Positions 1 to 59,310 of a DNA stretch of 64,000 nt are shown piece by piece (within the stretch, counting starts at the first letter, position 1; each line of letters starts with the position of its first letter). This DNA is from an uncultured Bacilli bacterium (GTDB lineage Bacteria > Bacillota_I > Bacilli_A > RFN20 > CAG-449). Location of the stretch: positions 12,823 to 76,822 of the forward strand of contig CANQEO010000001.1 of the NCBI GenBank assembly GCA_947595215.1, written 5' to 3'. The notes below the pieces were generated by a model that did no database searches, was not told where the DNA came from, and saw nothing but the letters and a program-made list of their open reading frames with translations. The position numbers and the translations under genes are program-made.

Positions 1-232
1 ATAAAGAATAGTCTCTTATACCTTCAAAAAGCTCACTGAGACTTATCTCTAATGCCATTGCGATTTGTCTTAAAACTTTAAGCGAAGGATTTCTTCTTCC
101 ATTTTCCAGATCAGATAGATAATTTCTGTTTATGTCAGCTTCGATAGATAGATCTAAAGCTGACATCTTTTTTTGTTTTCTTAAATATACGATTCTTTGG
201 CCCAGCTGCACATAAATATCCATTGATTCCAT
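1..232 (-). CDS. XRE-family helix-turn-helix transcriptional regulator (3' end cut by window edge)
   Basis: Absent from the ORF track because it runs off the window. Reverse-strand translation from the ATG at 232-230 gives MESMDIYVQLGQRIVYLRKQKKMSALDLSIEADINRNYLSDLENGRRNPSLKVLRQIAMALEISLSELFEG..., a classic HTH_3/XRE pattern. The ATG overlaps the whiA stop (TAATG). GGAGG lies 9 nt upstream. Confidence 0.6.
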   Translation of the reverse strand, partial: MESMDIYVQLGQRIVYLRKQKKMSALDLSIEADINRNYLSDLENGRRNPSLKVLRQIAMALEISLSELFEGIRDYSL

Positions 233-24658: not shown

Positions 24659-24689
24659 AAATCTTTCCTTCCTTTCAAAGTTATTTAAA

Positions 24690-24718
24690 ATTATATTGTG
24701 AGATATAAAAATATACAA
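24690..24718 (-). promoter_or_regulatory. sigma-A-type promoter of lipoprotein A (duplicated at 29671-29699)
   Basis: On the minus strand: TTGTAT, a 17-nt spacer, then TATAAT. It lies about 30 nt upstream of the RBS. Confidence 0.6.
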
Positions 24719-24821
24719 CATTTTTATTAAAAAATGAAAATAGCTGTGTAAAATTATCAGCTTTTTTGTAAATTAATTTCAAAATCTTTGCTAAATTCTT
24801 TTAAACATTATTTAAACTGCT

Positions 24822-24851
24822 TATAATGTGATAAACAATCATATTGTTTAT
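24822..24851 (+). promoter_or_regulatory. -10 box plus 9-3-9 palindrome upstream of lipoprotein B (duplicated at 29803-29832)
   Basis: TATAAT at 24822-24827. It is followed by the perfect palindrome ATAAACAAT-CAT-ATTGTTTAT (24831-24851), just before the AAAGGAGA RBS. Confidence 0.45.
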
Positions 24852-24873
24852 TTAACTAAAGGAGATGGAAGTT

Positions 24874-26283
24874 ATGAAAAAAAGAAAGCTATTATTAACT
24901 TTGACTACTGTCGTTTTAGTTGGTCTTGTCGGCTGTGATCAAGAAAATCCTTCAACAAGTAGTAGTGATAGTGAACACCCAACTGTCGATCAAAGTTTTG
25001 CTCAAGTTTTAGCTAACGCCAAAAAAAGTGTCAATATCGTTGGTGAATATATATCCGTTTATACAGATGATGGAGAAATTGATGAAGAAGGAAGTTACGA
25101 TATTACTATCGCCTCTGATTTCTATCAAACATCTCGTTACTATACGGGTTCTTACGGAAGAGAATATGATGAAAATTATACTTTTGTAAAAGGTGATGAT
25201 GGAAAGATTTACGAACGTACTCTTTCTCTTAAAAATACACCCACTGATGTGATTTATAAAAATAGTTTTAATGGCGAAGAATTAAATTATGATGAACTTT
25301 GCTTAAATCCCTTTGAATCATTAGAAATCGATGATTTTTATGTTGATGAAAATGGACGCTATTCAGTAAATACAAACGCTGTCAACGCTTTTAAAGGAAT
25401 TACTATCCTTGAAAGTATTCGTGATATTTACTTCTTCCCTGAATTACAAGTTGAAAGTGTTTCATTTGAATATAATAATGGTGTTTTATCCGATGGTATT
25501 ATTTCTACTGTGCCACAAAAAGATCATACCGTATTTGAATGGAATTTCTATTATGAATTTACTTTCGAAATTGATTTCCCCGGTGAATTAGATATTCCTG
25601 AGGTTGAAACTCTCCCAAGCAATGAATCACATGAAATTTTAAAAACTGCATTAAATAAAATGCATGAAAAAATGTCTGGAAACAACTATACCATTCACGC
25701 TTACTATGGTGACGATGAACTCGATTCAGAATATGACACTTACTATTATGGAGATGGGTGTTATAGCGAATTCCACCCTCTTCTTTACTCATATACCCAA
25801 GGGTATAAATTACATGCAGATGGAAAATATTATCGCTATAGATATTATTTAGCCGATGATTCATTTGATCATAAAGCCGGAGAATTAATTTATGATGTTG
25901 ATCTTGGAGGATACTATGTAGGTAGTAAATCCGTTATCAATAGTTTAGAAGAAATAGGTGCTGATTTTTCAATTTTTGCGCCAGAATTTTTCAAAAGCAA
26001 TACAGCGAATACTCTCTTCACTACAAGTAACAGAAAATATAGCGAAGCTATTTATAATGCTTTTACTCCATTTGTTGATAAATCAGATGGTGATTATGAT
26101 GTTAGAAGTATCACAATCGAATTAGATAGCACTACGAAAGAAATCACTTCTATCAGCGGTGTCGCTTACGATAATTACGCAGAATATGAATATGAATTCA
26201 CATATACCTATGGCTCTTTTGGATCAACTGTAAATCCTCTCGATGACCAAATTCGCGGTGGCGTACCTGATAAGAATTCATAA
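24874..26283 (+). CDS. lipoprotein, family B copy 1 (469 aa)
   Basis: MKKRKLLLTLTTVVLVGLVGC has a lipobox. The start is at the second ATG, 9 nt after AGGAGA. The body has two tandem modules, each beginning with a helix and an N-Y/F-T motif (ALNKMHEKMSGNNYTIHAYY). Confidence 0.85.
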   Translation: MKKRKLLLTLTTVVLVGLVGCDQENPSTSSSDSEHPTVDQSFAQVLANAKKSVNIVGEYISVYTDDGEIDEEGSYDITIASDFYQTSRYYTGSYGREYDENYTFVKGDDGKIYERTLSLKNTPTDVIYKNSFNGEELNYDELCLNPFESLEIDDFYVDENGRYSVNTNAVNAFKGITILESIRDIYFFPELQVESVSFEYNNGVLSDGIISTVPQKDHTVFEWNFYYEFTFEIDFPGELDIPEVETLPSNESHEILKTALNKMHEKMSGNNYTIHAYYGDDELDSEYDTYYYGDGCYSEFHPLLYSYTQGYKLHADGKYYRYRYYLADDSFDHKAGELIYDVDLGGYYVGSKSVINSLEEIGADFSIFAPEFFKSNTANTLFTTSNRKYSEAIYNAFTPFVDKSDGDYDVRSITIELDSTTKEITSISGVAYDNYAEYEYEFTYTYGSFGSTVNPLDDQIRGGVPDKNS

Positions 26284-26300
26284 TATGTAGGTGTAAAATT

Positions 26301-27755: not shown

Positions 27756-29639
27756 TTACACATTCAAATCAAAAACCATTTGAATTTCGTATTTATCATC
27801 CATGTAATCATAACTTCTGGTTTTAAAAGTAAGTTGAGTTTTATCAGCATTCAAAGTTGGATTACCAGTTATACTAAAGTATAATTCTCCTGAAGTATCA
27901 TATCCAATCCAATTAGTAAACGTTACTTTTTCTCCATTATAACTCCAGTTAAATGTAGCAGTTGAGTTAATACTCATATAAATGCTTGTATGGTCGATAC
28001 TTACTTGTTCAAGAGAACCTGTTTTATCATCATTTAAAGTCAATGTTGAAACAACTGTGAGATTATTTATAATAGCAGTATAAGTGAAAGTACCAATCAA
28101 GAAATCTTCATATATTTTTTCAATGATTGTAAGGTTCATGCTAGCAATTTTACTGGGATCTGAAGTTGCAGTTGCAGTAATTGTTGCAGTGCCCGGATTA
28201 ACACCAGTAACTTTTATGGATTTGTAATCTTCACTTATTTCGTATTCGATTACATTTGGGTCACTAACTTCGACAGTAAAAACTTTATTAGCGCCAGCAG
28301 GTGAACCATTAACTTGAATTATTAAAGATTCATCAACTTGGAAAGTCTTTTGGCTATCAGGAATAAAAACAAAGTTGAAAGAGGAAAGTGGTGGTTCAAC
28401 AACAGTAACTTCAACAATTTTCGTTATTAAACCAAACTTGTCACCAACGACAACATTCGCGATTCCTGAAGCTACCGCTTCGAATTTATCAGCATTATAT
28501 GCAGAAGTAGATTTTCTAATAACATCTTCATTATCGCTGCTTAACACTTTAAAAGATTTAGCATCCAAAGCCGTTGTCGGTAAATAACTTACAATATAAA
28601 CATCTAATGTATAACCTATTTCAGCTTTATTCTTATCACCATCATCCGGACGAAATGAATCATAAGTTGTTGAAACAAACACTTCCGATAATTCGCTAAT
28701 AAAATATGGAGAAACATCAAAGTTTAAACTTTCTTCTTCACCATACACAATGTTAGAAAGCTCTCTTCCAATCATCGAATTTGGATTTTGATCTGAATCG
28801 ATAATTTTATGAGATTCCGAATCAATATTGGTACTTTTCCATGAATAGTAATAATATGATCCGCTGACAAGATTATTTTCACTATCAAATTTATAAACTG
28901 TATGATATGTATTTGAACTAAGAGATGAAATTGAATCAAAGGAGAAAGTAAATCCTCCATTATCATCGCGAACAATCATCATTTGATCGTCTTTATCTGG
29001 CAGTGGATTTACACCTTCAATGATTGAATTTGAGGTAAATGTTTCTTTGGATTTTTCTATTAGCCATTTTAAGTTATAAGTAGAACTATTTTCAATTTTT
29101 GATTTGGCATCTTCCAATGTAATTTCTAAGTTTTTATCCGCAACATTTTCTACTAAGTTATATTTTTCAGCAGTTGTATTTGAATTTATATCATAATAAA
29201 AATTGGAATCGAAACCTTTATATATTAAATAGTCTTCATAATTCTTATTTGCATCTTTTGAAATCATAAATAAATCAGTATTTTCTTTAACTTCTTGTAT
29301 ACCCTGTTCTAAGGTTCCTTCATCAGCAAATTTAACATTTCCCCTTTTTTCAGTAGACGAAAAATCCTTAAACGATAATGAGGTAATACTCTTATCTAAT
29401 GAAGCATTTACTAAAGCAACAACTTCATCTAGTGTTTTGGGAAGTGGTGTTTCTTCTTCGGATGATTCTTCTTCACTGCTATCTTCAGAACTAACTTCAT
29501 TTGATGTATCATTTTCAGTTAGAGAATCAGAAGTTGGATTAGAATTAATATCTGACTGACTGCTTCCTTCATCGCCGGGATTACATGCCATTAATGATAA
29601 GGTAGTAAGAGATACTAGTAATAATTTTATTTTTTTCAT
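27756..29639 (-). CDS. large surface lipoprotein, paralog A2 (627 aa)
   Basis: The first 92 aa are identical to A1. The rest is a clearly related but much more divergent paralog, e.g. HTVYKFDSENNLVSGSYYYYSWKSTNIDSE versus HTVYKFDSENNLVSGSFYYNTWNSKNFDSD. Confidence 0.85.
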   Translation of the reverse strand: MKKIKLLLVSLTTLSLMACNPGDEGSSQSDINSNPTSDSLTENDTSNEVSSEDSSEEESSEEETPLPKTLDEVVALVNASLDKSITSLSFKDFSSTEKRGNVKFADEGTLEQGIQEVKENTDLFMISKDANKNYEDYLIYKGFDSNFYYDINSNTTAEKYNLVENVADKNLEITLEDAKSKIENSSTYNLKWLIEKSKETFTSNSIIEGVNPLPDKDDQMMIVRDDNGGFTFSFDSISSLSSNTYHTVYKFDSENNLVSGSYYYYSWKSTNIDSESHKIIDSDQNPNSMIGRELSNIVYGEEESLNFDVSPYFISELSEVFVSTTYDSFRPDDGDKNKAEIGYTLDVYIVSYLPTTALDAKSFKVLSSDNEDVIRKSTSAYNADKFEAVASGIANVVVGDKFGLITKIVEVTVVEPPLSSFNFVFIPDSQKTFQVDESLIIQVNGSPAGANKVFTVEVSDPNVIEYEISEDYKSIKVTGVNPGTATITATATSDPSKIASMNLTIIEKIYEDFLIGTFTYTAIINNLTVVSTLTLNDDKTGSLEQVSIDHTSIYMSINSTATFNWSYNGEKVTFTNWIGYDTSGELYFSITGNPTLNADKTQLTFKTRSYDYMDDKYEIQMVFDLNV

Positions 29640-31257
29640 AAATCTTTCCTTCCTTTCAAAGTTATTTAAAATTATATTGTGAGATATAAAAATATACAAC
29701 ATTTTTATTAAAAAATGAAAATAGCTGTGTAAAATTATCAGCTTTTTTGTAAATTAATTTCAAAATCTTTGCTAAATTCTTTTAAACATTATTTAAACTG
29801 CTTATAATGTGATAAACAATCATATTGTTTATTTAACTAAAGGAGATGGAAGTTATGAAAAAAAGAAAGCTATTATTAACTTTGACTACTGTCGTTTTAG
29901 TTGGTCTTGTCGGCTGTGATCAAGAAAATCCTTCAACAAGTAGTAGTGATAGTGAACACCCAACTGTCGATCAAAGTTTTGCTCAAGTTTTAGCTAACGC
30001 CAAAAAAAGTGTCAATATCGTTGGTGAATATATATCCGTTTATACAGATGATGGAGAAATTGATGAAGAAGGAAGTTACGATATTACTATCGCCTCTGAT
30101 TTCTATCAAACATCTCGTTACTATACGGGTTCTTACGGAAGAGAATATGATGAAAATTATACTTTTGTAAAAGGTGATGATGGAAAGATTTACGAACGTA
30201 CTCTTTCTCTTAAAAATACACCCACTGATGTGATTTATAAAAATAGTTTTAATGGCGAAGAATTAAATTATGATGAACTTTGCTTAAATCCCTTTGAATC
30301 ATTAGAAATCGATGATTTTTATGTTGATGAAAATGGACGCTATTCAGTAAATACAAACGCTGTCAACGCTTTTAAAGGAATTACTATCCTTGAAAGTATT
30401 CGTGATATTTACTTCTTCCCTGAATTACAAGTTGAAAGTGTTTCATTTGAATATAATAATGGTGTTTTATCCGATGGTATTATTTCTACTGTGCCACAAA
30501 AAGATCATACCGTATTTGAATGGAATTTCTATTATGAATTTACTTTCGAAATTGATTTCCCCGGTGAATTAGATATTCCTGAGGTTGAAACTCTCCCAAG
30601 CAATGAATCACATGAAATTTTAAAAACTGCATTAAATAAAATGCATGAAAAAATGTCTGGAAACAACTATACCATTCACGCTTACTATGGTGACGATGAA
30701 CTCGATTCAGAATATGACACTTACTATTATGGAGATGGGTGTTATAGCGAATTCCACCCTCTTCTTTACTCATATACCCAAGGGTATAAATTACATGCAG
30801 ATGGAAAATATTATCGCTATAGATATTATTTAGCCGATGATTCATTTGATCATAAAGCCGGAGAATTAATTTATGATGTTGATCTTGGAGGATACTATGT
30901 AGGTAGTAAATCCGTTATCAATAGTTTAGAAGAAATAGGTGCTGATTTTTCAATTTTTGCGCCAGAATTTTTCAAAAGCAATACAGCGAATACTCTCTTC
31001 ACTACAAGTAACAGAAAATATAGCGAAGCTATTTATAATGCTTTTACTCCATTTGTTGATAAATCAGATGGTGATTATGATGTTAGAAGTATCACAATCG
31101 AATTAGATAGCACTACGAAAGAAATCACTTCTATCAGCGGTGTCGCTTACGATAATTACGCAGAATATGAATATGAATTCACATATACCTATGGCTCTTT
31201 TGGATCAACTGTAAATCCTCTCGATGACCAAATTCGCGGTGGCGTACCTGATAAGAA
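29364..31257. repeat. 1894-bp direct repeat, copy 2
   Basis: See copy 1. Identity ends inside the last codons of the B gene: AAT TCA TAA in copy 1 versus AAC TCT TAA in copy 2. Both encode N-S-stop. Confidence 0.9.
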
Positions 31258-31264
31258 CTCTTAA
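29855..31264 (+). CDS. lipoprotein, family B copy 2 (469 aa, protein identical to copy 1)
   Basis: The ORF-track translation is identical to 24865-26283. Confidence 0.85.
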   Translation: MKKRKLLLTLTTVVLVGLVGCDQENPSTSSSDSEHPTVDQSFAQVLANAKKSVNIVGEYISVYTDDGEIDEEGSYDITIASDFYQTSRYYTGSYGREYDENYTFVKGDDGKIYERTLSLKNTPTDVIYKNSFNGEELNYDELCLNPFESLEIDDFYVDENGRYSVNTNAVNAFKGITILESIRDIYFFPELQVESVSFEYNNGVLSDGIISTVPQKDHTVFEWNFYYEFTFEIDFPGELDIPEVETLPSNESHEILKTALNKMHEKMSGNNYTIHAYYGDDELDSEYDTYYYGDGCYSEFHPLLYSYTQGYKLHADGKYYRYRYYLADDSFDHKAGELIYDVDLGGYYVGSKSVINSLEEIGADFSIFAPEFFKSNTANTLFTTSNRKYSEAIYNAFTPFVDKSDGDYDVRSITIELDSTTKEITSISGVAYDNYAEYEYEFTYTYGSFGSTVNPLDDQIRGGVPDKNS

Positions 31265-31285
31265 CTATATTCTTACTCATAATCA

Positions 31286-46350: not shown

Positions 46351-48054
46351 TTACCAGTCCTCATTGAATTTTGTTCTATATGACATTAGTTTAGAAATAT
46401 CATAATCGTATTTTGAGTCGTATGGATTAATCTTAGATTGATATTCAAATACATCATCTTTTTCGTAATTAGAAAACTCTTCACAACGATAAAACCTTTG
46501 TAATTTGCTTTTTAAAACATAGGGACAATTAGCTTCAGTAATAATGCATTCCCCTTCTTTTAAATATGCTAAATCGCTTTTGGGTATGAGCGGAATAGTT
46601 TCTATGCTGATATCAGTCAATTTTTCTCCTTGACCTTTTAAAGCACATATCGGAGATATGCGTGTATATTCGCCACATTCTCTTTTAAACGCTTCCAATG
46701 TTTCTGGATTATTACTACCTAAGAAAATATGAATATTAAGATTATCTCTAATAATAGTGGCTACATTTTTGCCATAAACATTATCTAATTGAGCATAAGA
46801 TTGAATTATCAAAATAAAGAAAATATTTCTTCCTCGACATGCTGATATCGTAGTGTCCAGATCAATTATAGGTGGAAAATTGCCAAATTCATCAAGAATA
46901 AAATAAAATGGTTTATCTAATTTTCCGGTTTTCAATCTACTTACATTTTCAATTAAAAAATTATATGCACTTTGAACAAAAAGACTAATCATTTGATAAT
47001 GTGTTTTAATCTCATCATGATAATCAATAAAGATAGCAACTTTATCTTCTAAAAGAACATTTAAATCGAATGAATTACAACTAGTGATAGTTTGAATCGT
47101 ACTATTCTTCATGACCGCTAACTTTGATTGGAAGGTAGTCATATAACTAGATCGAGTTCTTTCCGCACAATCAAAAGGTCCCCTTGAAAATAAATACGCT
47201 TTTGAATTGTGCGGTCTTCTAGAGAAGTATCCCCTATCGAAGTTTAATGGATTTTCATTCGAACCCATACCATCAAAACTAGCAAGAATCTTAAAAATTG
47301 TGCTGAACGAGAAAGTATCTTCAGTAATCCTCTCAAAAGAACTCTCATCAAGTTTTGAATCTTCAAGCATTGCCCATAAGAAAGATTTTAAGATATCTCT
47401 GGCACCCAAATCCCAAACCATATCATGCTTATCATCAATTGTGATAAGCATATTAGCCATGTGATCAATTTTATTACCAACCTCAGAAAGCATTAATTTT
47501 TTTTCAAATTGCGCATTTTTTTCTGCTTCTTTCAAAGTATCGTAAATCTTATCTTGAAAGCGATACTTGATACGTTGATTAATAGTTACTCTTTCAATTT
47601 CCTTAGTAACATCAAAAGCACGTTGATATTCTCGGTATATCGGAGTTAACGGATTCCAATATTCGCTGTGACGATGATCTCTAAAATTTAATAGATAAAC
47701 TTTATACCCTTCTTTACGCAGTTTTTTTGCAGTAATCCGATAGTTTTCTCCTTTAGGATCCGAAATAACCATGCTCTTTTTTATCGCTTGACTTGCAAAC
47801 GATAAAATGGTTGGAATGACATACGATGTGGTCTTTCCTAATCCAGTTGCCGAAATTACCGCAACATGGCAATCATTTTTTGAATATTTTTGCATAAGTT
47901 CTCCATTAATGGAAAAACTCGCTTTCAATACACCATTCATTTTGCATTTAGGAAGATCTTTAAAAGAGACTAACTCGTCTCTATCGAGTTCATTATATGA
48001 AACGAGTTTTTGATTTTCATGCCCTTTTATTAATTCACTGATTTCCTTATACAT
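46351..48054 (-). CDS. VirD4/TraG-like type IV coupling protein-family ATPase, soluble (no N-terminal TM segment), 567 aa
   Basis: Walker A context NDCHVAVISATGLGKTTSYVIPTIL; Walker B FYFILDEFGNFPPI; then IFFILIIQSYAQLDNVYGKNVATIIRDNLNIHIFLGSNNPETLEAFKRECG. These are the hallmark T4CP blocks. The start is set at the ATG at 48054 (GGAGG + 8 nt). It overlaps the upstream stop by 8 nt (ATGTATAA). There is no hydrophobic N-terminus. Confidence 0.8.
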   Translation of the reverse strand: MYKEISELIKGHENQKLVSYNELDRDELVSFKDLPKCKMNGVLKASFSINGELMQKYSKNDCHVAVISATGLGKTTSYVIPTILSFASQAIKKSMVISDPKGENYRITAKKLRKEGYKVYLLNFRDHRHSEYWNPLTPIYREYQRAFDVTKEIERVTINQRIKYRFQDKIYDTLKEAEKNAQFEKKLMLSEVGNKIDHMANMLITIDDKHDMVWDLGARDILKSFLWAMLEDSKLDESSFERITEDTFSFSTIFKILASFDGMGSNENPLNFDRGYFSRRPHNSKAYLFSRGPFDCAERTRSSYMTTFQSKLAVMKNSTIQTITSCNSFDLNVLLEDKVAIFIDYHDEIKTHYQMISLFVQSAYNFLIENVSRLKTGKLDKPFYFILDEFGNFPPIIDLDTTISACRGRNIFFILIIQSYAQLDNVYGKNVATIIRDNLNIHIFLGSNNPETLEAFKRECGEYTRISPICALKGQGEKLTDISIETIPLIPKSDLAYLKEGECIITEANCPYVLKSKLQRFYRCEEFSNYEKDDVFEYQSKINPYDSKYDYDISKLMSYRTKFNEDW

Positions 48055-49618
48055 TTTTGTAACCTCCAAATCCATAAATTGTATGATCCTCACGATATTG
48101 AGTTAACTCGCTAATCGTTATCACTTTATTACAATCAACTGAAGATAAAAGCGATGTTAATGTTTCAGAAGCATCTTTCAATGACAAAGCATAAAGATGC
48201 TCTAACGAATTTTTGTCAAATTCAACTTCAACGCCAAACTCTTCAGTTTTTGTTTTGATTAATTTCGATAATAAAATTTCCTTTTCGACATTTTCGATGT
48301 TTTTTAAGAAAATTGTTTGTAGTATTTTTAAGTGCTTAGCATTTTTGCTATCACACAAGAAGATAGGATAAACAGAACTTAAATCGATAGAGATTCCTAA
48401 TCCACTTAAAAAGAACGCTTTTCTTTCTTCGTTGTTAGCAAAACTTTTTATTGCATTGAGATAATTAGAGTTAACATCTCCATGAACAATAAAAACGTAA
48501 ATATTCGCTTTATCTTCCTCGCAACTACGAACAAGGATATTATGGCGACTTGATTCTAGATCGAACGGCTTCAATTGTGATACATCAATTTTTACAATAT
48601 TAGCATCTTTAAATCGCAAAGAAATATGATTATAATAGTCTTCTAACAAGAAAGCATCTTCATTAATAAGGCACAAAGCGTTATAGCAATTATTGTTAAA
48701 TTGCTTAGCAATTTTATTTATAATCTTATCTTGTTCATCCTTGCGCGATACCATCGATTGCCCTTGATAAACCAAAAGTTTAACTTTGTTTTTCATTAGG
48801 CATAATGGTAAGTCATTTGCAGCATCTAATACATCCTGATTTCCAAATACAATTTTGCGTTTATCCTTTTCATTGATTAATGTAGACATTAAAATACGTG
48901 CATATTTAGGTACATAAACATTAGGATTAAGTTGTTCGGATCCTATAAGTTTTTGCAATAAATATGTATTTTCGTGAAACTTGATATTTATGCCTCGATA
49001 AAAAGAATTTGCTCTTTCAAAAATATAATAGGTAGGTAAATTATTAAGAAGTGTATAAAGATGACTCAAATACTCATCGCGACTTTTTTTATTAAAGTAA
49101 AGACACATCAAAATGCTATCAACATCATTCCAATTAGCCGCTTTTTCTAGCGTTTTAAGCGATTTATCTTCATAAGTTTCAATAATCTTTAATGCTTGAA
49201 TTAATCCAAAAAGCCTTAATGAAATAATTTTATTTTTATAGGAACTTGAAACTAAAAAGTTAATCGCTTCAGATTGACTCGGTTTCAAGTTGACATTATA
49301 GCCTTCTTTGATTAATAATTTCATCGCTTGACCTTTAATTTTAATGATTTCTTCTTGTTTAGAATCAAAAGTATATTGACTACCATTAAGGTAAAATACT
49401 TCTTTAATTCTTTGATGGCGATCATAATCAATTTCAGTGGCGATATTATTAACCGCTTCAGACTTAACGATATCGTATAATTCGTCGCAAGTTTCATTTG
49501 ATAACATATACACATTCGCAAGTTCATTAAAGAGCGTTTTATTATTTTTTCCAGTCAAACACTCTACTTGGAAATAGCATCTGAGAAAATTTTCTTCCAA
49601 CATATTTAATAAATTCAT
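48047..49618 (-). CDS. 523-aa protein: unknown helical N-terminal half plus a degenerate Hsp100/Clp D2-like AAA+ module
   Basis: Start at the ATG at 49618 (GAGAGG RBS, 7 nt after the ClpP stop). The C-terminal half aligns by eye to Clp/Hsp100 D2. IVFGNQDVLDAAND resembles VIGQDEAI. LLVYQGQSMVSRKDE sits where GPTGVGKTE would be. NIYVFIVHGDVNSNYLNAIKSF sits where [23 protein letters not shown] would be. PIFLCDSKN sits at sensor-1 (IIMTSN). EEFGVEVEFDKNSLEHLYALS resembles the D2-small lid. It ends in TIYGFGGYKNV. Confidence 0.45.
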   Translation of the reverse strand: MNLLNMLEENFLRCYFQVECLTGKNNKTLFNELANVYMLSNETCDELYDIVKSEAVNNIATEIDYDRHQRIKEVFYLNGSQYTFDSKQEEIIKIKGQAMKLLIKEGYNVNLKPSQSEAINFLVSSSYKNKIISLRLFGLIQALKIIETYEDKSLKTLEKAANWNDVDSILMCLYFNKKSRDEYLSHLYTLLNNLPTYYIFERANSFYRGINIKFHENTYLLQKLIGSEQLNPNVYVPKYARILMSTLINEKDKRKIVFGNQDVLDAANDLPLCLMKNKVKLLVYQGQSMVSRKDEQDKIINKIAKQFNNNCYNALCLINEDAFLLEDYYNHISLRFKDANIVKIDVSQLKPFDLESSRHNILVRSCEEDKANIYVFIVHGDVNSNYLNAIKSFANNEERKAFFLSGLGISIDLSSVYPIFLCDSKNAKHLKILQTIFLKNIENVEKEILLSKLIKTKTEEFGVEVEFDKNSLEHLYALSLKDASETLTSLLSSVDCNKVITISELTQYREDHTIYGFGGYKNV

Positions 49619-49625
49619 AATTAAA

Positions 49626-50201
49626 TTACCTCTCTTTATCTTGTTTTTTAGATGGTATAACCATGTCAATGAGACCATATTGCAAAGCGGTATCAGCATC
49701 CATAATATTGTCTCTATCGGTATCACGTTGAATTGTTTCAATTGATTTACCAGTGTTTTGAGCCATTATTTGATTGAGCTTGTTTTTAATTTTTTGAATG
49801 TGCTCAGCGGCAATCATAATATCTGAAGCTTGACCACTCACACCACCTAAAGGTTGATGGATAAGAATCTCACAATTTTGAGTTGCTTTTCTCATTCCTT
49901 TAGTTCCCGAACAAAGTAAAAAAGCTGCCATTGAGGCTACCATTCCGATTCCAACAGTTGCAATCTTGGCTTGGATGAAATTCATGGTATCATAGATTGC
50001 TAATCCTTCATTGACACTGCCACCTGGACTATTGATTTGAATTGTAATGATTCTTTCATCCAGTGGCGCATTCTCAGTTTTAAATTTATTATCAAGATAG
50101 AGCAACTGACTGATAACTCTATATGATGTATCAACATCGATTGGTCCAAAAAGATTTATCGTGTTGTGATATAGTGAATAATTCATTGAGAACTCTTTCA
50201 T
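49626..50201 (-). CDS. ClpP-family serine protease paralog (191 aa, shortened N-terminus)
   Basis: INSPGGSVNEGLAIYDTMNFI; GMVASMAAFLL (catalytic Ser); ILIHQPLGG (His); RDTDRDNIMDADTALQYGLID (Asp). It is close to canonical ClpP over the core. It starts at MKEFSMNYSLYHNTINLFG, so the axial N-terminal loop region is missing. Strong RBS (AAAGGAGG + 6 nt). Confidence 0.88.
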   Translation of the reverse strand: MKEFSMNYSLYHNTINLFGPIDVDTSYRVISQLLYLDNKFKTENAPLDERIITIQINSPGGSVNEGLAIYDTMNFIQAKIATVGIGMVASMAAFLLCSGTKGMRKATQNCEILIHQPLGGVSGQASDIMIAAEHIQKIKNKLNQIMAQNTGKSIETIQRDTDRDNIMDADTALQYGLIDMVIPSKKQDKER

Positions 50202-52762: not shown

Positions 52763-55084
52763 TTATTTCATTTCCGGTATTTTCGCAAAGCTTGGTATTT
52801 CTGTAGTTCCGATATCTTGAAATATTGCACTAGCAAAAACTGAATATGTTTCATGTCTAACATTATCACTATCATATTCGATTTCAATTTCATCCAAAAC
52901 AGAAACAATTAAATTTTCATCTTTGATTTCTAAAATAACACCACAGAAACCCAAGTAACTGCTTCCTCCTAATTGCATTGCTTCGACAAATATATCGTAA
53001 ATTTCCTCATCAAGAGAAAGATATTTATCATCTTCATATGTTGCAATAGTTTCAATCATGCTAGCTTCAAAGCGATTAAAAGCATTAAAATCAGATACTT
53101 TCTCTAAAGATAGTGAAGGATGAGATGAAACTGTAAATGTCGAAGTTTCCGTTTCTTCATCAACTAACCAACCGAAATTATAGACATATTTAGACTTACT
53201 TGAGGTGATAAAACCATCTTCATAAGTACCAAAATATATCGTATCTTCAGTATAGTAATCATAATCAGTTTCATCAAAATAAATTCCATATTCAGGATCA
53301 TCTTGATAAGCGATGGTAAAATTATCTAAATCTTTCATTTTATTAATAATCTCTTTTAATTCACGATTTTCATAAGTCGGAAATGATGGCTCATCATGAG
53401 AAGATTTGTAATTATCAATTAAATTTAAAGAAGTCTCATTAATTTTCTCCAGATGTCCTGAGGTATTCGTATATCCTAAAGAATTAATAATCTCAAACTC
53501 TAAAGTTCCATCATCTTTTATGGTGACATACGCTTGCAATTGATTATATGGATTACTTCCTAAAATTAAAGACAATATTTTCATATATCGAGATGAATTC
53601 GTTACAAAACGATTATCACCTAATGGTTGAAAGTAATGAAAATCTAAGGCTTTAAAGGAATATGTTGCATCGTATTCTTCTCTTAATAACGTTTTATTTC
53701 TTGTAGGAGTTATCTCACCTTGATCAATTACGTAATTGTAAGCATAATCTTCATAAACAATATAATCGGTCGATGGGAAATTATTATAATAATCTTTATA
53801 TTCTTTACGACCACCTTCAGTTGAAATGATTCCACGAAATTCAGTTTCATCTTCTTCTAAATTTTTAACATAGGTAAAATTGGTATCTAAATCTTTAACG
53901 GCCTCAATTAATGTTTCATTTTCATAATACGTTAATGTCGGTTTAATAGTCCCATTAAGATAATCATTCAATGCAGGTAAGCCAGTTGTTCCAATATTAA
54001 ATATTTTTCCTTCGTAAACCGAACTATGATTTCTCATCAAAGAAATAAAGGCACTCCTAGTTGCAGGATCAACTTCAATTTGCACCATGTTGATTCCATC
54101 ACCTTCAACAATTAATAAATCACAAATATTTTGAACATTATAATAATCTGAAGAAACATAAGTGTTAGTAGCAACTTCCTTAAATTTAGAAAAATCGTGG
54201 CGCTTAAAAGGATAGTTTTTTTCTATAAAATCTGTACTTTCAACAATTTCAAAATCAACTGTAGCAACATTTTCTACAATATCATAATAATGAACTCCAT
54301 CTTCTAATGCGATAATTCCACTACTCGATACAATATTGCTTCCATCACCTTCAAAAGTACCTACGTAATCTTTTGTTAGCAATGTCGTTATCCCACGTTT
54401 AGTAGTAAGATTTTGTCCGATGAAGGTAAAGTTATCATTAAGAGATCCTAATACCTCTAATAAGGGATCATTTTTAAAAGTTTCGAGTTCCGGATCGATT
54501 CTAGAATCTAGATAATCAGAAACCGGTTTATAGGAAGTTTCGTTAATTCCATATATAGTTCCACTCATCACTACCCGATTATAATCATCGAAGAATCGGA
54601 AATTAAGCAGTCCATTATCCATAAATAAATCTGCCGCAACATAAGGTTTCGAGTTAGTTAAAAACGATAAAGCCTCCATAGCGATAGGATCATTTGTATG
54701 GTAAGTATCATCTTTTTCTTCTAAAACACTTGTATCGATGTCAAATGGCACATAATGAGAATCAAAATCAGCTTTAGTACCGCTATAAGGAACATGTGGA
54801 ATTACAATATCATTATGGATAGTATAAACATACATAGTTCCATCATAAAGTACAAATTGCCCCCCACCCAATTCTTCATCATAGATATAATCTTGATTTC
54901 GATAAATATGATAACGTCCATTTGAGGTAATATAATTTATTGTATAATTATCTCTAATTGATTCTAAAGTTTCGATTACTTTTGATGAAGTAGTCGATGA
55001 AATAGAATTATCTCCATTATCACTTGGATTGCAAGAAACTAATAGGGCGAGTGATATTATTAATAAAAAACCATTCTTTTTCAT
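52763..55084 (-). CDS. large lipoprotein built of four family-B-like modules (773 aa)
   Basis: MKKNGFLLIISLALLVSC has a lipobox. The helix + N-Y/F-T motif recurs about every 185 aa: LESIRDNYTINYI, LGSLNDNFTFIGQ, VKDLDTNFTYVKN, MKDLDNFTIAYQD. Confidence 0.8.
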   Translation of the reverse strand: MKKNGFLLIISLALLVSCNPSDNGDNSISSTTSSKVIETLESIRDNYTINYITSNGRYHIYRNQDYIYDEELGGGQFVLYDGTMYVYTIHNDIVIPHVPYSGTKADFDSHYVPFDIDTSVLEEKDDTYHTNDPIAMEALSFLTNSKPYVAADLFMDNGLLNFRFFDDYNRVVMSGTIYGINETSYKPVSDYLDSRIDPELETFKNDPLLEVLGSLNDNFTFIGQNLTTKRGITTLLTKDYVGTFEGDGSNIVSSSGIIALEDGVHYYDIVENVATVDFEIVESTDFIEKNYPFKRHDFSKFKEVATNTYVSSDYYNVQNICDLLIVEGDGINMVQIEVDPATRSAFISLMRNHSSVYEGKIFNIGTTGLPALNDYLNGTIKPTLTYYENETLIEAVKDLDTNFTYVKNLEEDETEFRGIISTEGGRKEYKDYYNNFPSTDYIVYEDYAYNYVIDQGEITPTRNKTLLREEYDATYSFKALDFHYFQPLGDNRFVTNSSRYMKILSLILGSNPYNQLQAYVTIKDDGTLEFEIINSLGYTNTSGHLEKINETSLNLIDNYKSSHDEPSFPTYENRELKEIINKMKDLDNFTIAYQDDPEYGIYFDETDYDYYTEDTIYFGTYEDGFITSSKSKYVYNFGWLVDEETETSTFTVSSHPSLSLEKVSDFNAFNRFEASMIETIATYEDDKYLSLDEEIYDIFVEAMQLGGSSYLGFCGVILEIKDENLIVSVLDEIEIEYDSDNVRHETYSVFASAIFQDIGTTEIPSFAKIPEMK

Positions 55085-55085
55085 A

Positions 55086-56420
55086 TTAAGCCTCCAAAAC
55101 TTCTACTTCGACGAAGAAAATTACTTCCGGTGAGAATATCATTTGACATTTAATATATGCAATACCACTACTCATAGCAACATAACCGATATTATCACTA
55201 TCTTCCATAATAACTACTTGATCAGGCGGATTTTGAATGCCGACAATGTTAAAATTCTTAGTATCTAACGATTTTTCTCCTTCATATTCCACCAAAGAAA
55301 TATAATCAGTTCTTATACGATCTCCAACATGAACATCGCCTTCGTAATTTGCAACAGTTACCGAAGTCACAAAATATTCACTCGGATTGAAATCAATATC
55401 AGACGAATTGTATTTTTCTCCACGTATCGCTTTAAAAGCATAACTTTCAGTTTTTGATACGACTGGATTCTCTACGAACGATTTAGAGGAAACATCATAT
55501 TGATTTTCATCATAATATGTCTTTTTTAAAGAACCTTCTTTAAAAAAACCATCATTATTAAATTTTAATTCCGCTTCATATAAACGAGAATCATTGCTTA
55601 CCTCATCAGCCCAAACAAAGAGATAAATATTTTTTAAATTTAAAGTAAATCCGTCATCATCTTTTTCGCCATTAATTTCAAGAGTTAAAGTTCTCGCTTC
55701 CCACATGGAAACTAATTCATTATAGAAACTAGAAATATATGAAGGACTATCTCCTCTTTTTTCAGCTTCACTGCGCAAAATATCATACGTAGAGGGATTG
55801 GCATCAACTAATTTTCTTTTAATTCCATAACCAGTCACATCACTATCAATTACTTGATAATAATAATCACCACTAATACCATCAAACTTTGTAGAATGTT
55901 CTTCATGTTTTCCTGAATAGTTTTCATATTTTTCTTCTAGTGTTTCAAGATAGAAATGATCTTTATACATTTTAGCGGAACGTTTTAAATCTTGTTTGAT
56001 ATTCGATGCTTTAGTTTCTAAATAAAACTCATTTGCATCACCTTCTAAATTAAGGGCTTGATTAAATAATTGAGTTAATTCTAATTGATTATGGGGAATA
56101 GCCATCTCATCTTTAACTTCTACTTTTAATGATGCAGTTAAAGTTGAATTTATAACAGTTGCGGTGATTTCTACTTCTCCGACTTTATATGCTATAGCTT
56201 CTCCACGCGAATTAATAGATAACACTAATTCATCGCTACTTTCAAAATTTACTTCCATTTCAGAAGAAACTTCATATTTAGCTATTTGACCAACATTTAA
56301 AGTTTCAGGACCGATAATGTTAAATTCACTTATCGAAGTATTTTCTGATCCAATATTTTGGTTATTGTTACAACTTCCTAATAATAAAACTATACTAAAT
56401 AGTACACATAATTTTTTCAT
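55086..56420 (-). CDS. lipoprotein with Big_2-like domains (444 aa)
   Basis: MKKLCVLFSIVLLLGSC has a lipobox. There is an N-terminal Ig-like segment (FNIIGPETLNVGQIAKYEV...GEVEITATV). Confidence 0.8.
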   Translation of the reverse strand: MKKLCVLFSIVLLLGSCNNNQNIGSENTSISEFNIIGPETLNVGQIAKYEVSSEMEVNFESSDELVLSINSRGEAIAYKVGEVEITATVINSTLTASLKVEVKDEMAIPHNQLELTQLFNQALNLEGDANEFYLETKASNIKQDLKRSAKMYKDHFYLETLEEKYENYSGKHEEHSTKFDGISGDYYYQVIDSDVTGYGIKRKLVDANPSTYDILRSEAEKRGDSPSYISSFYNELVSMWEARTLTLEINGEKDDDGFTLNLKNIYLFVWADEVSNDSRLYEAELKFNNDGFFKEGSLKKTYYDENQYDVSSKSFVENPVVSKTESYAFKAIRGEKYNSSDIDFNPSEYFVTSVTVANYEGDVHVGDRIRTDYISLVEYEGEKSLDTKNFNIVGIQNPPDQVVIMEDSDNIGYVAMSSGIAYIKCQMIFSPEVIFFVEVEVLEA

Positions 56421-56431
56421 AATAACCCTCC

Positions 56432-59170
56432 TTAATGAGATAACTGAATCGAAATTGTCACATATTCATCTAAATCGTATATTCTTAAATTAATACTATT
56501 ACCATCATCCAAAATACTAGATCCTGACGCTCCTTTAAAATCATACCATTTATCAGGTTGTACCATTGTTTGAACGTTGGTAAATGAAATAGTTAAATCG
56601 TCATTCAGATTCCAATTAAACGAATAAACTCCACCACCTTGTAATGATAAACTTCCGGTGCCATCTTCATTAAATATTATTGTGTGGTTACCATCAGAAT
56701 ATGGAGCGCTACACATATTTTCAATAGTAGAATCAAGATTAGGTTTCTCTTTGATGGTAATAGTTTTTGTACTCCTAATAGAAGGATTAGCATTTGCGGT
56801 AGCGATTAAAGTCGCACTACCGGCACTTATCGCAGTAACAAGATATTTTCCATCACCTTGATCTTCTAAAGTGACAAATTTCTCACTTCCTTCTTGTAAA
56901 GAAATAGTATAAGAAGAATCGTCTACTTCACTAGGTAGCACAGAAGCACTAACAATGTAATTATCACCCACCATTAAGAAATTAGGAATGTAGTCAAAGT
57001 TAATCGCTTTGACAGTTGGTGCAACCACTTCTAATTCTATATTCTTGGAAACACCTGTATCGGAAGTGATAGTAATTGTAGTGGTACCAATGTCCTTACC
57101 TAATACATAAAGAAGTGAGTCAAACGAAGAATCGGTGACCACTTCATCGTTTTCAATTGATATAGTATACACGGCATCTAAATGTCTTGATGGTTTTTCA
57201 TCAATAATATTGATTGCTTTGCTTTCACCTCTATCAATTACTAACTTATCTCCTTTTTTATTAAAATTACTTACATCAATATCGAAGTCACTTACTTTAT
57301 ATGAATCAATATTTATTCTTTGAGAATCGGTAGGTAATCTTGTTCCATATGTAAGAGAAGCGTTAATTGTTTCGCCTGTCGAAGGAACTGCCCCTTCTTT
57401 AAGACAATTATTTATTTGGTCGTAAGCGTCTTGGTCATATTTATTCACATTAGAGTTAAATAATATAATTTCTCCTTCTAAATTAAAGATGATTTTCATA
57501 TTTACACTCATAAAGGATTTATTATCATCCCATGACCAATTTTTATAGGCGCATGCTCCAGAAATTGATATGACCTTTTGATTATCTTTATTTGTTATAA
57601 TAACACGAATATTTTGGAGAATTTCTTCTTTATTAAAAGAGGAAGAATCTTGCAAAATCTCTTTAATCTTTTTAGAAACACCATAGGTATTATCAATATT
57701 TGGAAGTTGCACCATTTGATTAGCTTCTTCTTGAGTTACACTATAATAATCTTCGCCAATTGAATATTCGTTAAGCGATACACCATTATTATAAAAACTA
57801 TCTGAAACTTTATCTTCAAATACAAATACTGAATTATTATCTTTATAAGTAAGTGAAGTAGTAACACCACTATAATTTTCTACATTCATTTGAATAGCAT
57901 CGCTATAATTGCGCCATTCATAGGTATCTTCAAAATATGTAGTATCACTTTTATATTGGCCACCGCTTGAATTTAACTGTTCTAATAATAAAGCTTCATC
58001 TAATAAATCGTAAATTTCACTATATGTAGCGCTTTTTAAAACTGTTACATTGATAGTTTTTGAGATATTAGAGTTATTAGTAGTAAAAGTCAAACTACCC
58101 TCTCCATCTTTTAAGGCCGTTATTTTTTTATATTCAACTTTAAAAATATCCGGTGTAAAAGTAGTAATCGAATATGATTTATCACTAGCATTTTCCGGAT
58201 AAATTGTCACTTCATATTTTATTTCATCACCGGGAATAATCTCATTTGATAATAAATTGATATTGATATCGGTAACATCAATATTATTAGCTATAATTTC
58301 CAAAGCGATGCTATCTTCTTTTTCACCATCTTCAGAAAGAACATTAATTATGACATTTTCTCCTTCTGGTGTTTCTTTTAAGCCGGTTATTAAACCTTTT
58401 TGATTGACAATTGCATATTCGTTATTGCTAGAAGAATAACTCAAATTCATATTGTCTGCATTTTTTGGTAATACTTCAACATTCAGTTGCAAAGAAGAGC
58501 CCACAACTAAAGAAGTTTCTTCATTTAAAATAGTTACACTTGAAACATGAACTACACGTTTAGTTATTGTTAGTTCAAAAAAATCATTTACTTTTTGATC
58601 ACGAGAAGTAACGCCGATAGTTGTAGTACCCGGAATTAAAGCGCGTATCACACCCTCATCATTTACACTTGCGATAGATGGCACTGATGATGTGAATGTC
58701 AATTTCTTATCAGTAGCGTTATCCGGTGTAATTAAACATTCCAAGGTATATTCTTCATCTTGAGCCAAACTTTGTATCTTATTTGTGATAGTTAAAGATT
58801 CTATCTCAATAATTTTATCTTTTACTGTAATAACAAGTTGATCACTTAAGTTATATTCTTGTTCCTCAACTTTTAAAGTGGTAGTACCAGCCTTCAAAGC
58901 GTGAACATGGCCATCATTGCTAACAGAAGCAACTTCTTCATTTGATGATGTGAATGTTACTACATAATCATCGCAAGAAGGAGTTATTGCATAAGTTAAA
59001 TTCATCTCTTCACCAATATCTAATACTTCTTTAGGTGCATATAGTATTATGCTTTTAGAATCATCACTAGCATCAAATGACGAGTCCGTAGTTGACCCGT
59101 TAAGAGTACCTTGATTAGCACAACCACATAAAGTTAAAAGCAATATTACTAATAATATTCTTTTTTTCAT
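56432..59170 (-). CDS. large lipoprotein with at least five tandem Big_2-like domains (912 aa)
   Basis: Start at 59170 (MKKRILLVILLLTLCGC; AAAGGTGAG RBS). It has repeated units of about 85 aa, of the form ...TFTSS..SIASV..DG.I.AL.PGTTTI.V. It ends in the shared C-terminal module. Confidence 0.85.
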   Translation of the reverse strand: MKKRILLVILLLTLCGCANQGTLNGSTTDSSFDASDDSKSIILYAPKEVLDIGEEMNLTYAITPSCDDYVVTFTSSNEEVASVSNDGHVHALKAGTTTLKVEEQEYNLSDQLVITVKDKIIEIESLTITNKIQSLAQDEEYTLECLITPDNATDKKLTFTSSVPSIASVNDEGVIRALIPGTTTIGVTSRDQKVNDFFELTITKRVVHVSSVTILNEETSLVVGSSLQLNVEVLPKNADNMNLSYSSSNNEYAIVNQKGLITGLKETPEGENVIINVLSEDGEKEDSIALEIIANNIDVTDININLLSNEIIPGDEIKYEVTIYPENASDKSYSITTFTPDIFKVEYKKITALKDGEGSLTFTTNNSNISKTINVTVLKSATYSEIYDLLDEALLLEQLNSSGGQYKSDTTYFEDTYEWRNYSDAIQMNVENYSGVTTSLTYKDNNSVFVFEDKVSDSFYNNGVSLNEYSIGEDYYSVTQEEANQMVQLPNIDNTYGVSKKIKEILQDSSSFNKEEILQNIRVIITNKDNQKVISISGACAYKNWSWDDNKSFMSVNMKIIFNLEGEIILFNSNVNKYDQDAYDQINNCLKEGAVPSTGETINASLTYGTRLPTDSQRINIDSYKVSDFDIDVSNFNKKGDKLVIDRGESKAINIIDEKPSRHLDAVYTISIENDEVVTDSSFDSLLYVLGKDIGTTTITITSDTGVSKNIELEVVAPTVKAINFDYIPNFLMVGDNYIVSASVLPSEVDDSSYTISLQEGSEKFVTLEDQGDGKYLVTAISAGSATLIATANANPSIRSTKTITIKEKPNLDSTIENMCSAPYSDGNHTIIFNEDGTGSLSLQGGGVYSFNWNLNDDLTISFTNVQTMVQPDKWYDFKGASGSSILDDGNSINLRIYDLDEYVTISIQLSH

Positions 59171-59310
59171 AGTCTCACCTTTCTTTAATATCCTAGATAT
59201 TAGAATAAATAATATCATAAATAAATATTTATATATACAAAAAAAGAAAAACGCCTAAAATTAGGAGATATTTAGATGCTTTTAAAGGATTTTAATCAAA
59301 ATTAATAAAG

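Follow-up and report, generated by a model that had tools for sequence, protein, structure and literature searches.

A soluble coupling-protein-like ATPase encoded in an operon with a ClpP paralogue and a putative ATP-dead AAA+ protein

Introduction

To our knowledge, all characterised coupling proteins act at a membrane-embedded secretion system, and all known bacterial partners of the peptidase ClpP are active AAA+ unfoldases. Among these, ClpX, ClpA and ClpC bind ClpP by means of (I/L/V)-G-(F/L) loops. Here we analyse an ATPase gene of the type IV coupling protein (T4CP; VirD4/TraG) type that adjoins genes for a ClpP paralogue and for a second protein, ORF2. The three genes, called the cassette below, lie within a 64,000-nucleotide stretch of DNA from an uncultured Bacilli bacterium (positions 12,823 to 76,822 of contig CANQEO010000001.1, assembly GCA_947595215.1), and this stretch at its full length is referred to as the window.

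Like the CD1115-type T4CPs (NF045973), Cagbeta (8dol) and TrwB (1e9s/1gki), the cassette ATPase has a nucleotide-binding and an all-alpha domain, Walker A and B motifs and a TraG-D_C region. However, it lacks their N-terminal transmembrane (TM) domain, scores below the NF045973 cut-off and belongs to a separate clade on a long stem. It also has a conserved aromatic C-terminal tail, and it never adjoins a relaxase or VirB4 gene, but ORF2 and ClpP. Another likeness is to SIR2-HerA/Nezha and DUF4297-HerA, where a ring ATPase of the FtsK-HerA superfamily stands beside an effector enzyme (structural matches at ~E=1e-7). In the cassette, on the other hand, the ATPase is of another clade, and the effector would be a ClpP peptidase reached through an adaptor.

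The cassette resembles ClpXP, ClpAP and ClpCP as well, in that it has a ClpP with an intact catalytic triad and an AAA+-fold partner, ORF2, whose hydrophobic-Gly-Phe motif co-varies with ClpP. It differs in several respects. ORF2 has no P-loop, and its motif lies in a disordered C-terminal tail, not in an internal loop. The cassette ClpP lacks the canonical axial N-terminal segment, and the only live ATPase of the operon is the RecA-fold T4CP relative. ORF2 further recalls LonA, whose AAA+ module is matched by residues ~290–510 together with the preceding helices. Unlike LonA, it has neither a Lon (Ser-Lys) protease domain nor a Walker A motif, its N-domain is made of Sel1 repeats, and proteolysis would come in trans from ClpP.

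A full-text literature search, whose coverage of subscription journals is thin, returned no published description of the cassette. The three-gene operon is widespread and apparently undescribed; each of its parts belongs to a known family, and it is the combination that appears new.

Results

An ATPase of the coupling-protein type without a membrane anchor

An initial annotation of the gene had proposed a VirD4/TraG-like ATPase devoid of a membrane anchor, and both points are borne out. The translation of the open reading frame (ORF) contains all the sequence blocks quoted there, namely HVAVISATGLGKTTSYVIPTIL, FILDEFGNFPPI, IIQSYAQLDNVYG, IFLGSNNPETLEAF and MYKEISELIKGHENQ. The Pfam matches are to T4SS-DNA_transf (PF02534; E=3.6e-49), TraG-D_C (6e-24) and TrwB_AAD_bind (4e-16). 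PF02534, PF10412 and PF12696 are all matched, and the nucleotide-binding and all-alpha domains expected of a T4CP are both present. Such scores place the family assignment well beyond chance.

Among NCBIfam models, NF045973 (“VirD4-like, CD1115 family”, an equivalog) fits best by far; the ATPase matches it at 236.7 bits without reaching the curated cut-off of 250. Two further cassette ATPases also stay below this cut-off (225.9 and 238.0), whereas five anchored relatives lie above it (250.9–392.9). Scores against the classical VirD4, TraG and TraD models of NCBIfam are under 70 bits. When an AlphaFold2 model built from 122 homologues (pLDDT 91.4, pTM 0.89) was compared with the PDB by Foldseek, the coupling protein Cagbeta (8dol) came out best (E=1e-19, TM-score 0.60). 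TrwB followed (E ~1e-15, TMt up to 0.76), and then HerA, DotL and VirB4.

The most hydrophobic 19-residue segment of the ATPase reaches 1.18 on the Kyte-Doolittle scale and lies inside the nucleotide-binding core, in the P-loop region. Nine canonical T4CPs encoded in related genomes were scored in the same way as a positive control. Two N-terminal segments exceed 1.6 in eight of them; L017, whose ORF is probably truncated, has a single internal one. The TM-bearing relatives serving as this yardstick were taken from metagenome-assembled genomes (MAGs); CD1115-family genes also occur on plasmids of toxin-producing clostridia. Among the 120 closest ATPase homologues (555–576 aa), no comparably hydrophobic segment was found, the best 19-residue score being 1.41 at the median and 1.66 at most.

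Nor is an anchor supplied by any other start codon, as judged by hydropathy. The only alternative is a GTG at 48093, which adds 13 hydrophilic residues and no TM segment, with in-frame stops beyond. A longer ORF or alternative start that would add a TM helix is ruled out by these upstream in-frame stops and by the 3′ end of ORF2, which occupies the frame.

A conserved operon with a private ClpP

The initial annotation had called the gene an orphan. Instead, it is the third gene of a conserved operon and overlaps the gene upstream of it. The cassette consists of three tightly packed minus-strand genes in the order clpP-like, ORF2 (Sel1 repeats plus a putatively dead AAA+ fold) and T4CP-like, with the ATPase gene last. 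A strong Shine-Dalgarno sequence, AAAGGAGG, precedes the ATG of the private clpP. Judging from the junctions between the genes (Table 1), the ATPase gene is probably translationally coupled to those upstream.

The arrangement is conserved well beyond the window. More than 650 homologues of the ATPase are of uniform length (555–576 aa) and share ~50–56% identity. On three contigs picked for length, ORF2 and the T4CP-like gene stand together in unrelated flanks, with ClpP in two of the three. For a wider comparison, 80 cassette loci were fetched and analysed, with simple ORF calls as gene calls, and across them the triad or the pair recurs with differing flanks. ORF2 adjoins the ATPase in every locus that has room for it, except L051 and L097. 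ClpP lies immediately upstream in 49 of the 79 loci with enough upstream sequence (~60%), so that the co-occurrence with ClpP-like genes that had been proposed for checking turned out positive. The ATPase is inherited together with ORF2 and, in most cases, with a private ClpP.

Pairwise ratios of nonsynonymous to synonymous substitution rates (dN/dS) are 0.04–0.14 for ClpP, 0.09–0.26 for ORF2 and 0.05–0.17 for the ATPase, several dS values being near saturation. All three cassette genes are under purifying selection, and ORF2 is the fastest-evolving among them.

The private ClpP is 46% identical to the canonical ClpP of the same genome, which is encoded just before the window (contig C1:12285–12830) and ends at window positions 1–8. 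Its Ser-His-Asp triad (S90, H115 and D164) is invariant in 43/43 aligned cassette ClpPs. Its N-terminus, on the other hand, is remodelled. In canonical ClpP, the N-terminal segment, which contains PLIPAV in this genome, is an axial gate that communicates with the unfoldase. The Pfam match of the private ClpP begins at profile position 14, compared with 5 in the housekeeping ClpP of the window’s genome; in three other genomes it begins at 13–15 in the cassette ClpP and at 2–3 in the housekeeping one. Cassette ClpPs are ~12 residues shorter at the N-terminus and carry their own signature, EEFSxxYSLxRNT(I/V)NIFG, in place of the canonical axial segment. This replacement would fit an unusual partner. 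A phage origin of the gene, with ClpP as a prohead protease, is ruled out by the scores of 207–209 bits on cellular models versus 89–101 bits on phage models.

A Lon-like AAA+ fold without a P-loop

None of Pfam, NCBIfam and PADLOC gives a match for ORF2. Against the PDB, the profile of its family finds Sel1-repeat proteins at positions 116–194 (E=6e-10) and, weakly, Lon at positions 396–503 (E=0.12). The AlphaFold2 model of ORF2 (pLDDT 92.4, pTM 0.86) is of low confidence in residues 513–523, the tail having pLDDT<50. With this model, the top ~30 Foldseek matches are LonA AAA+ modules (from E=2e-7, probability 1.0), followed by ClpB and ClpA.

At the site where an AAA+ protein has its P-loop, DSSP applied to the model gives a strand (315–318), a three-residue turn and a helix (322–335), reading ALCL-INE-DAFLL. 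FIVHGD stands at the Walker B position. One of the 75 homologues from the loci, and none of the 143 representatives, has a strict Walker A. Because both the P-loop and Walker A are missing, ORF2 is predicted from the model to be an ATP-dead AAA+ fold behind a Sel1/helical domain.

A word-based homologue search with ORF2 found only ORF2 itself, and its homologues were drawn from the fetched loci and a profile search. The ORF2s of other loci align end to end with that of the window at 28–31% identity. A profile of 75 ORF2 sequences, run against 1.84 billion proteins, retrieved 272 representatives at E<=1e-30, nearly all of them 520–550 aa long. Apart from the domains described above, a DLPLxL motif (residues 269–274, window 48797–48814) with an invariant P271 is kept across the 75 sequences, which otherwise share ~25% identity. 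The model places it, with lower confidence, in the linker that joins the helical N-domain to the AAA+ fold.

Tail chemistry and the ClpP partner

ORF2 ends ~13 residues past its lid domain, and its disordered tail carries a candidate ClpP-docking peptide (Table 1). The motif [YILFVMC]GF occurs within the final 25 residues in 73/75 locus sequences and in 135/143 representatives (94–97%).

Docking on ClpP would lead one to expect a tail that varies with the ClpP partner, and this is what is seen. When a private ClpP is adjacent, the motif is aromatic, Y/F-GF, in 44 of 47 cassettes. When there is no private ClpP, it is aliphatic and ClpX-like, I/L/C-GF, in 22 of 28. The association between tail type and private ClpP has a Fisher p=1.2e-10 with phylogeny ignored. 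On the ATPase tree, which was made by a quick maximum-likelihood method, ClpP adjacency changes at least 12 times, and when the tree and the tails are read together, at least six contrasts between sisters run the way that docking predicts, among them L079 versus L049/L050/L037, L061 and L032/L038 versus L025–L031, L035/L036 versus L059/L063, and L042/L086 versus L040/L076. Furthermore, three genomes with ClpP-less cassettes have a single canonical ClpP, whereas three with a cassette ClpP have two ClpPs. Thus, the tail chemistry of ORF2 tracks which ClpP is available.

The ATPase has a conserved tail of its own. An aromatic residue (F, W or Y) stands within the last three positions in 113/122 family members, the final residue being F in 77, and the aromatic end is often preceded by acidic or basic runs (FDF, DDDDLF, NEDW). 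This recalls the C-terminal Phe of F-plasmid TraD, which binds TraM. By analogy, the aromatic tail may be a candidate docking peptide for ORF2 or ClpP.

The operon overlap and gap, the conservation, the putatively dead AAA+ fold, the tail co-variation and the private ClpP, with its invariant triad and its own N-terminal signature, are together read as pointing to one cytoplasmic machine, not to conjugation. We lean slightly towards the ATPase being a subunit of such a three-protein machine and not a conjugation component. In the machine that we conceive, ORF2 would form an ATP-dead adaptor ring bridging the ATPase ring and ClpP. The ORF2 tails would dock in the hydrophobic pockets of ClpP, in analogy to the IGF/VGF loops of ClpX and ClpC, and the Sel1 domain or another surface of ORF2 would hold the T4CP-like hexamer, possibly via the aromatic C-terminal tail of the ATPase. 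The T4CP-like ring would supply the ATP-driven substrate recognition or translocation that a dead AAA+ fold cannot. The machine would then deliver protein, perhaps DNA-bound or DNA-linked, to ClpP for degradation.

Several points weigh against this machine. First, docking of the ORF2 tail on ClpP is an analogy, and the Clp ATPases, whose AAA+ ring is active, carry the motif on an internal loop, whereas ORF2, with its putatively dead fold, has it in a C-terminal tail. Second, T4CPs are RecA-fold DNA-dependent ATPases, and we know of no T4CP that serves as an unfoldase for a peptidase. Third, ~40% of the cassettes have no private ClpP. Six ClpP-less cassettes keep aromatic tails, and a YGFGG tail occurs at L033 in a genome (G066) with the canonical ClpP only; the p-value given above carries no phylogenetic correction. 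Fourth, an FtsK-gamma/FtsK-like fourth gene, common elsewhere, is not found in the window or in its genome (851 kb, 65% complete). The copy in the window may be a minimal form; alternatively, the FtsK-like gene may be dispensable.

Separation from conjugation, plasmids and phages

Placement in the tree had been proposed as a check of the anchorless ATPase. The 86 soluble ATPases form one clade with full support (SH-aLRT 100, stem 3.38), separate from the anchored T4CPs of related genomes. From its sequence relationships, the soluble clade appears to be sister to, and derived from, the membrane-anchored CD1115-type coupling proteins of Firmicutes.

The annotated lack of linkage to a relaxase or a type IV secretion system (T4SS) also stands when the search is extended to the whole genome. 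In the window’s 65%-complete genome, no VirB4-type AAA_10, second T4CP, PF03432 relaxase or Rep_trans was found, the MOBV, MOBQ and MOBF models lying outside the search. VirB4 was not found in 11 of 14 cassette genomes. In the other three (G053, G068 and G100), VirB4 has a separate anchored T4CP 10–12 kb away, on a contig other than that of the cassette, which means that the search detects real conjugative modules. By the same relaxase models, PF03432 occurs in 2/14 and Rep_trans in 0/14 of these genomes.

These observations bear on the possibility of a conjugative remnant or satellite, be it a T4CP gene in decay or a soluble coupling protein working for a T4SS encoded elsewhere. The nearest named family is indeed the conjugative CD1115-type VirD4-like protein, but decay is at odds with the intact frame, the invariant catalytic residues, a dN/dS of 0.05–0.17 and a clade of hundreds of members that is uniform at 555–576 aa. 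Transfer genes could lie in the missing part of the genome; however, VirB4 is not found in most cassette genomes, and those that have it keep an anchored T4CP of their own beside it. In addition, T4CP mutants without the TM domain are inactive in conjugation (PMC7431656), which speaks against service to a distant T4SS and fits exaptation. We consider a remnant or satellite highly improbable.

A phage collection of 50,697 records holds no member of the ATPase family. At one locus (L002), terminase and portal genes lie 6 kb from the cassette. A plasmid-borne nature was ruled out, as no member with >31% identity exists in 72,556 plasmids; the nearest plasmid genes are of the CD1115 family, at 26–31% identity.

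Distribution and neighbours of the cassette

In a scan of one genome per species, at least 583 genomes have an ATPase relative, in gut Clostridia. Closer to the window, full-length members were found in 3/61 genomes of its order, and in 6/81 genomes around a Christensenella MAG. Three genomes of the same genus have no full-length member, G002 holding only a distant, anchored T4CP match. In four MAGs the cassette is present twice, as diverged copies on separate contigs (L026/L051, L046/L081, L037/L047 and L057/L095).

The 135 nearest non-cassette neighbour proteins match 103 Pfam families, including DnaA, ribosomal S7, TrmE, SpoIIR and TrkH. Only a few of these neighbours match PADLOC models, and the 25 commonest of the 103 families include no integrase or transposase. 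The cassette is patchy and accessory, and not obviously a defence island. From such a distribution, housekeeping seems a less fitting role than a specialised or conflict-related one.

Recurrent neighbours are a DUF1292 protein, an XRE-type helix-turn-helix (HTH) protein, a metallophosphoesterase and a DnaJ-Sel1 protein. In 41/77 loci, the next downstream gene is from one very variable cluster of 70–861 aa (e.g., L034:8677–11262), which starts in a winged-helix-like manner and whose long forms have FtsK alpha, motor and gamma domains. Since none of the five (DUF1292, XRE-type HTH, metallophosphoesterase, DnaJ-Sel1 or FtsK-like) is present in the window or its 65%-complete genome, the window holds a minimal triad.

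The downstream cluster raises the prospect of a DNA-handling machine, in which the ATPase would work with an FtsK-like/gamma partner in resolution, segregation or processing of chromosomal or element DNA, and ClpP and ORF2 would serve it only as a module for turnover or regulation. FtsK is, like the T4CPs to which it is related, a DNA-dependent ring ATPase, and the frequency of the cluster is in keeping with such a partnership. But the FtsK-like gene is missing from the window and highly variable elsewhere, the link that is conserved and co-varies is that between ORF2 and ClpP, and a patchy distribution argues against a core DNA function. A DNA-handling machine of this kind is quite unlikely.

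The patchiness (3/61 and 6/81 genomes), the two cassette copies in several MAGs and the differing flanks would fit an anti-mobile-element defence of the type that combines a ring ATPase with an effector, as in SIR2-HerA and DUF4297-HerA. The T4CP-like hexamer would sense or load on phage or plasmid DNA, or recognise an incoming relaxase. ClpP would then be switched on through ORF2, destroying invader proteins or killing the cell by uncontrolled proteolysis. Defence is a biological role and can coexist with the mechanism of a three-protein machine. The rank of HerA defence complexes next after T4CPs in Foldseek agrees with it, as do the fast evolution of ORF2 and the frequency of XRE-type HTH and FtsK-gamma DNA-binding genes nearby. 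In some Menshen NsnA proteins, a T4SS-DNA_transf domain is the proposed sensor (PMC12065111). PADLOC gives a weak match of the ATPase to mad8 (49.6 bits), the sole match among the three cassette proteins; ORF2 and the private ClpP have none. The surroundings also speak against defence, for the neighbours are heterogeneous chromosomal genes with few defence matches and without integrases or transposases among their commonest families, and the window’s own cassette has an aldo-keto reductase gene on one side and the S10 ribosomal operon on the other. On balance, we deem a defence role unlikely.

Two loci deserve separate mention. A contig labelled Corallococcus sp. (Myxococcota; L098, JAMPAB010000017.1) carries a cassette that nests among the Clostridia copies in the tree, and the contig was probably binned wrongly. 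Near another cassette, a few kb on its upstream side, a 579-aa HSP70-like gene (L003:1608–3347; weak Pfam match) lies among unknown genes and may be part of another uncharacterised module.

Other features of the window

Table 1 Cassette features and their positions in the window
Feature	Position	Strand	Remark or basis
Private ClpP paralogue, 191 aa	49626..50201	minus	Pfam CLP_protease E=3.5e-61
Remodelled ClpP N-terminus, MKEFSMNYSLYHNTINLFG	50145..50201	minus	Later start of Pfam match
Gap from ClpP stop to ORF2 ATG, 7 nt	49619-49625	minus	Sequence read
ORF2, 523 aa: helical N-domain with Sel1 repeats, Lon-like AAA+ fold (predicted), disordered tail	48047..49618	minus	
ALCLINED: strand beta-1 and 3-residue connection at the expected AAA+ P-loop position	48656..48679	minus	DSSP on model
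YGFGG tail motif, ORF2 residues 515-519, candidate ClpP-docking peptide	48062..48076	minus	In disordered tail
8-nt overlap ATGTATAA, ORF2 stop with T4CP-like ATG	48047..48054	minus	Sequence read
T4CP-like (VirD4/TraG-type) ATPase gene	46351..48054	minus	567 aa, ATG start, without TM anchor
Walker A SATGLGKTT, residues 68-76	47827..47853	minus	K74 invariant, T75/T76 >=90% conserved in 122 members
Walker B YFILDEFGN, residues 384-392	46879..46905	minus	D388, E389, F390 and N392 invariant in 122 members
ATPase C-terminal tail KFNEDW, aromatic end	46354..46371	minus	Family-wide tail survey

The S10 ribosomal-protein operon starts 546 nt downstream of the cassette. Upstream of the cassette are a doubtful 95-aa ORF, a lipoprotein-like gene and the aldo-keto reductase gene. 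A promoter and terminator scan gave counts equal to the shuffled expectation and was uninformative. In two genomes of the same genus (G001 and G002) and one of the same family (G004), no window gene upstream of rpsJ is kept within ~11 kb. Because this synteny is lost even within the genus, no clean insertion boundary or scar can be defined.

Elsewhere in the window, a direct repeat of 1.9 kb (24383–26286 and 29364–31268) is 99.84% identical between its copies. Each copy contains a 472-aa ORF without a Pfam match, and a diverged paralogue, also without matches, lies alongside (643 and 648 aa). The block may be an unclassified mobile gene or a block of tandem paralogues. At 52763–59218 on the minus strand, three large ORFs of 773, 444 and 928 aa follow one another, domains being found only in the last (Big_2 Ig-like repeats). 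They may form a surface-protein cluster.

Discussion

The initial annotation had suggested that a lone coupling-type motor was exapted for a cytoplasmic role. A cytoplasmic role other than export remains the best reading, whereas the picture of a lone gene has given way to that of an operon. We infer a cytoplasmic ClpP-linked machine. For its biological role, conflict or defence and a DNA-linked function are the main alternatives, both of them compatible with the mechanism.

A more specific proposal can be made about what the machine would be. It may represent a new class of ATP-dependent protease, in which a RecA-fold ring of the FtsK/HerA/T4CP lineage powers ClpP via a dead, Lon-like adaptor ring with a ClpX-like C-terminal tail. 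Such a protease could be guided by DNA and remove DNA-bound or DNA-linked proteins, for example a relaxase piloting incoming conjugative DNA. We put this forward tentatively, as a possibility that is somewhat unlikely.

A soluble coupling-type motor joined to ClpP via a dead AAA+ adaptor would fit neither the picture of ClpP with its unfoldases nor that of the coupling proteins. Should the three proteins work as one machine, it would add to the repertoire of energy-dependent proteases. It would also offer a soluble and tractable setting in which to ask whether rings of the T4CP type can engage or translocate protein substrates, a matter that is difficult to approach while the T4CP is bound to a membrane. 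Few studies have dealt with accessory systems in the uncultured gut Clostridia in which the cassette is common, such as Christensenellales and related lineages with small genomes.

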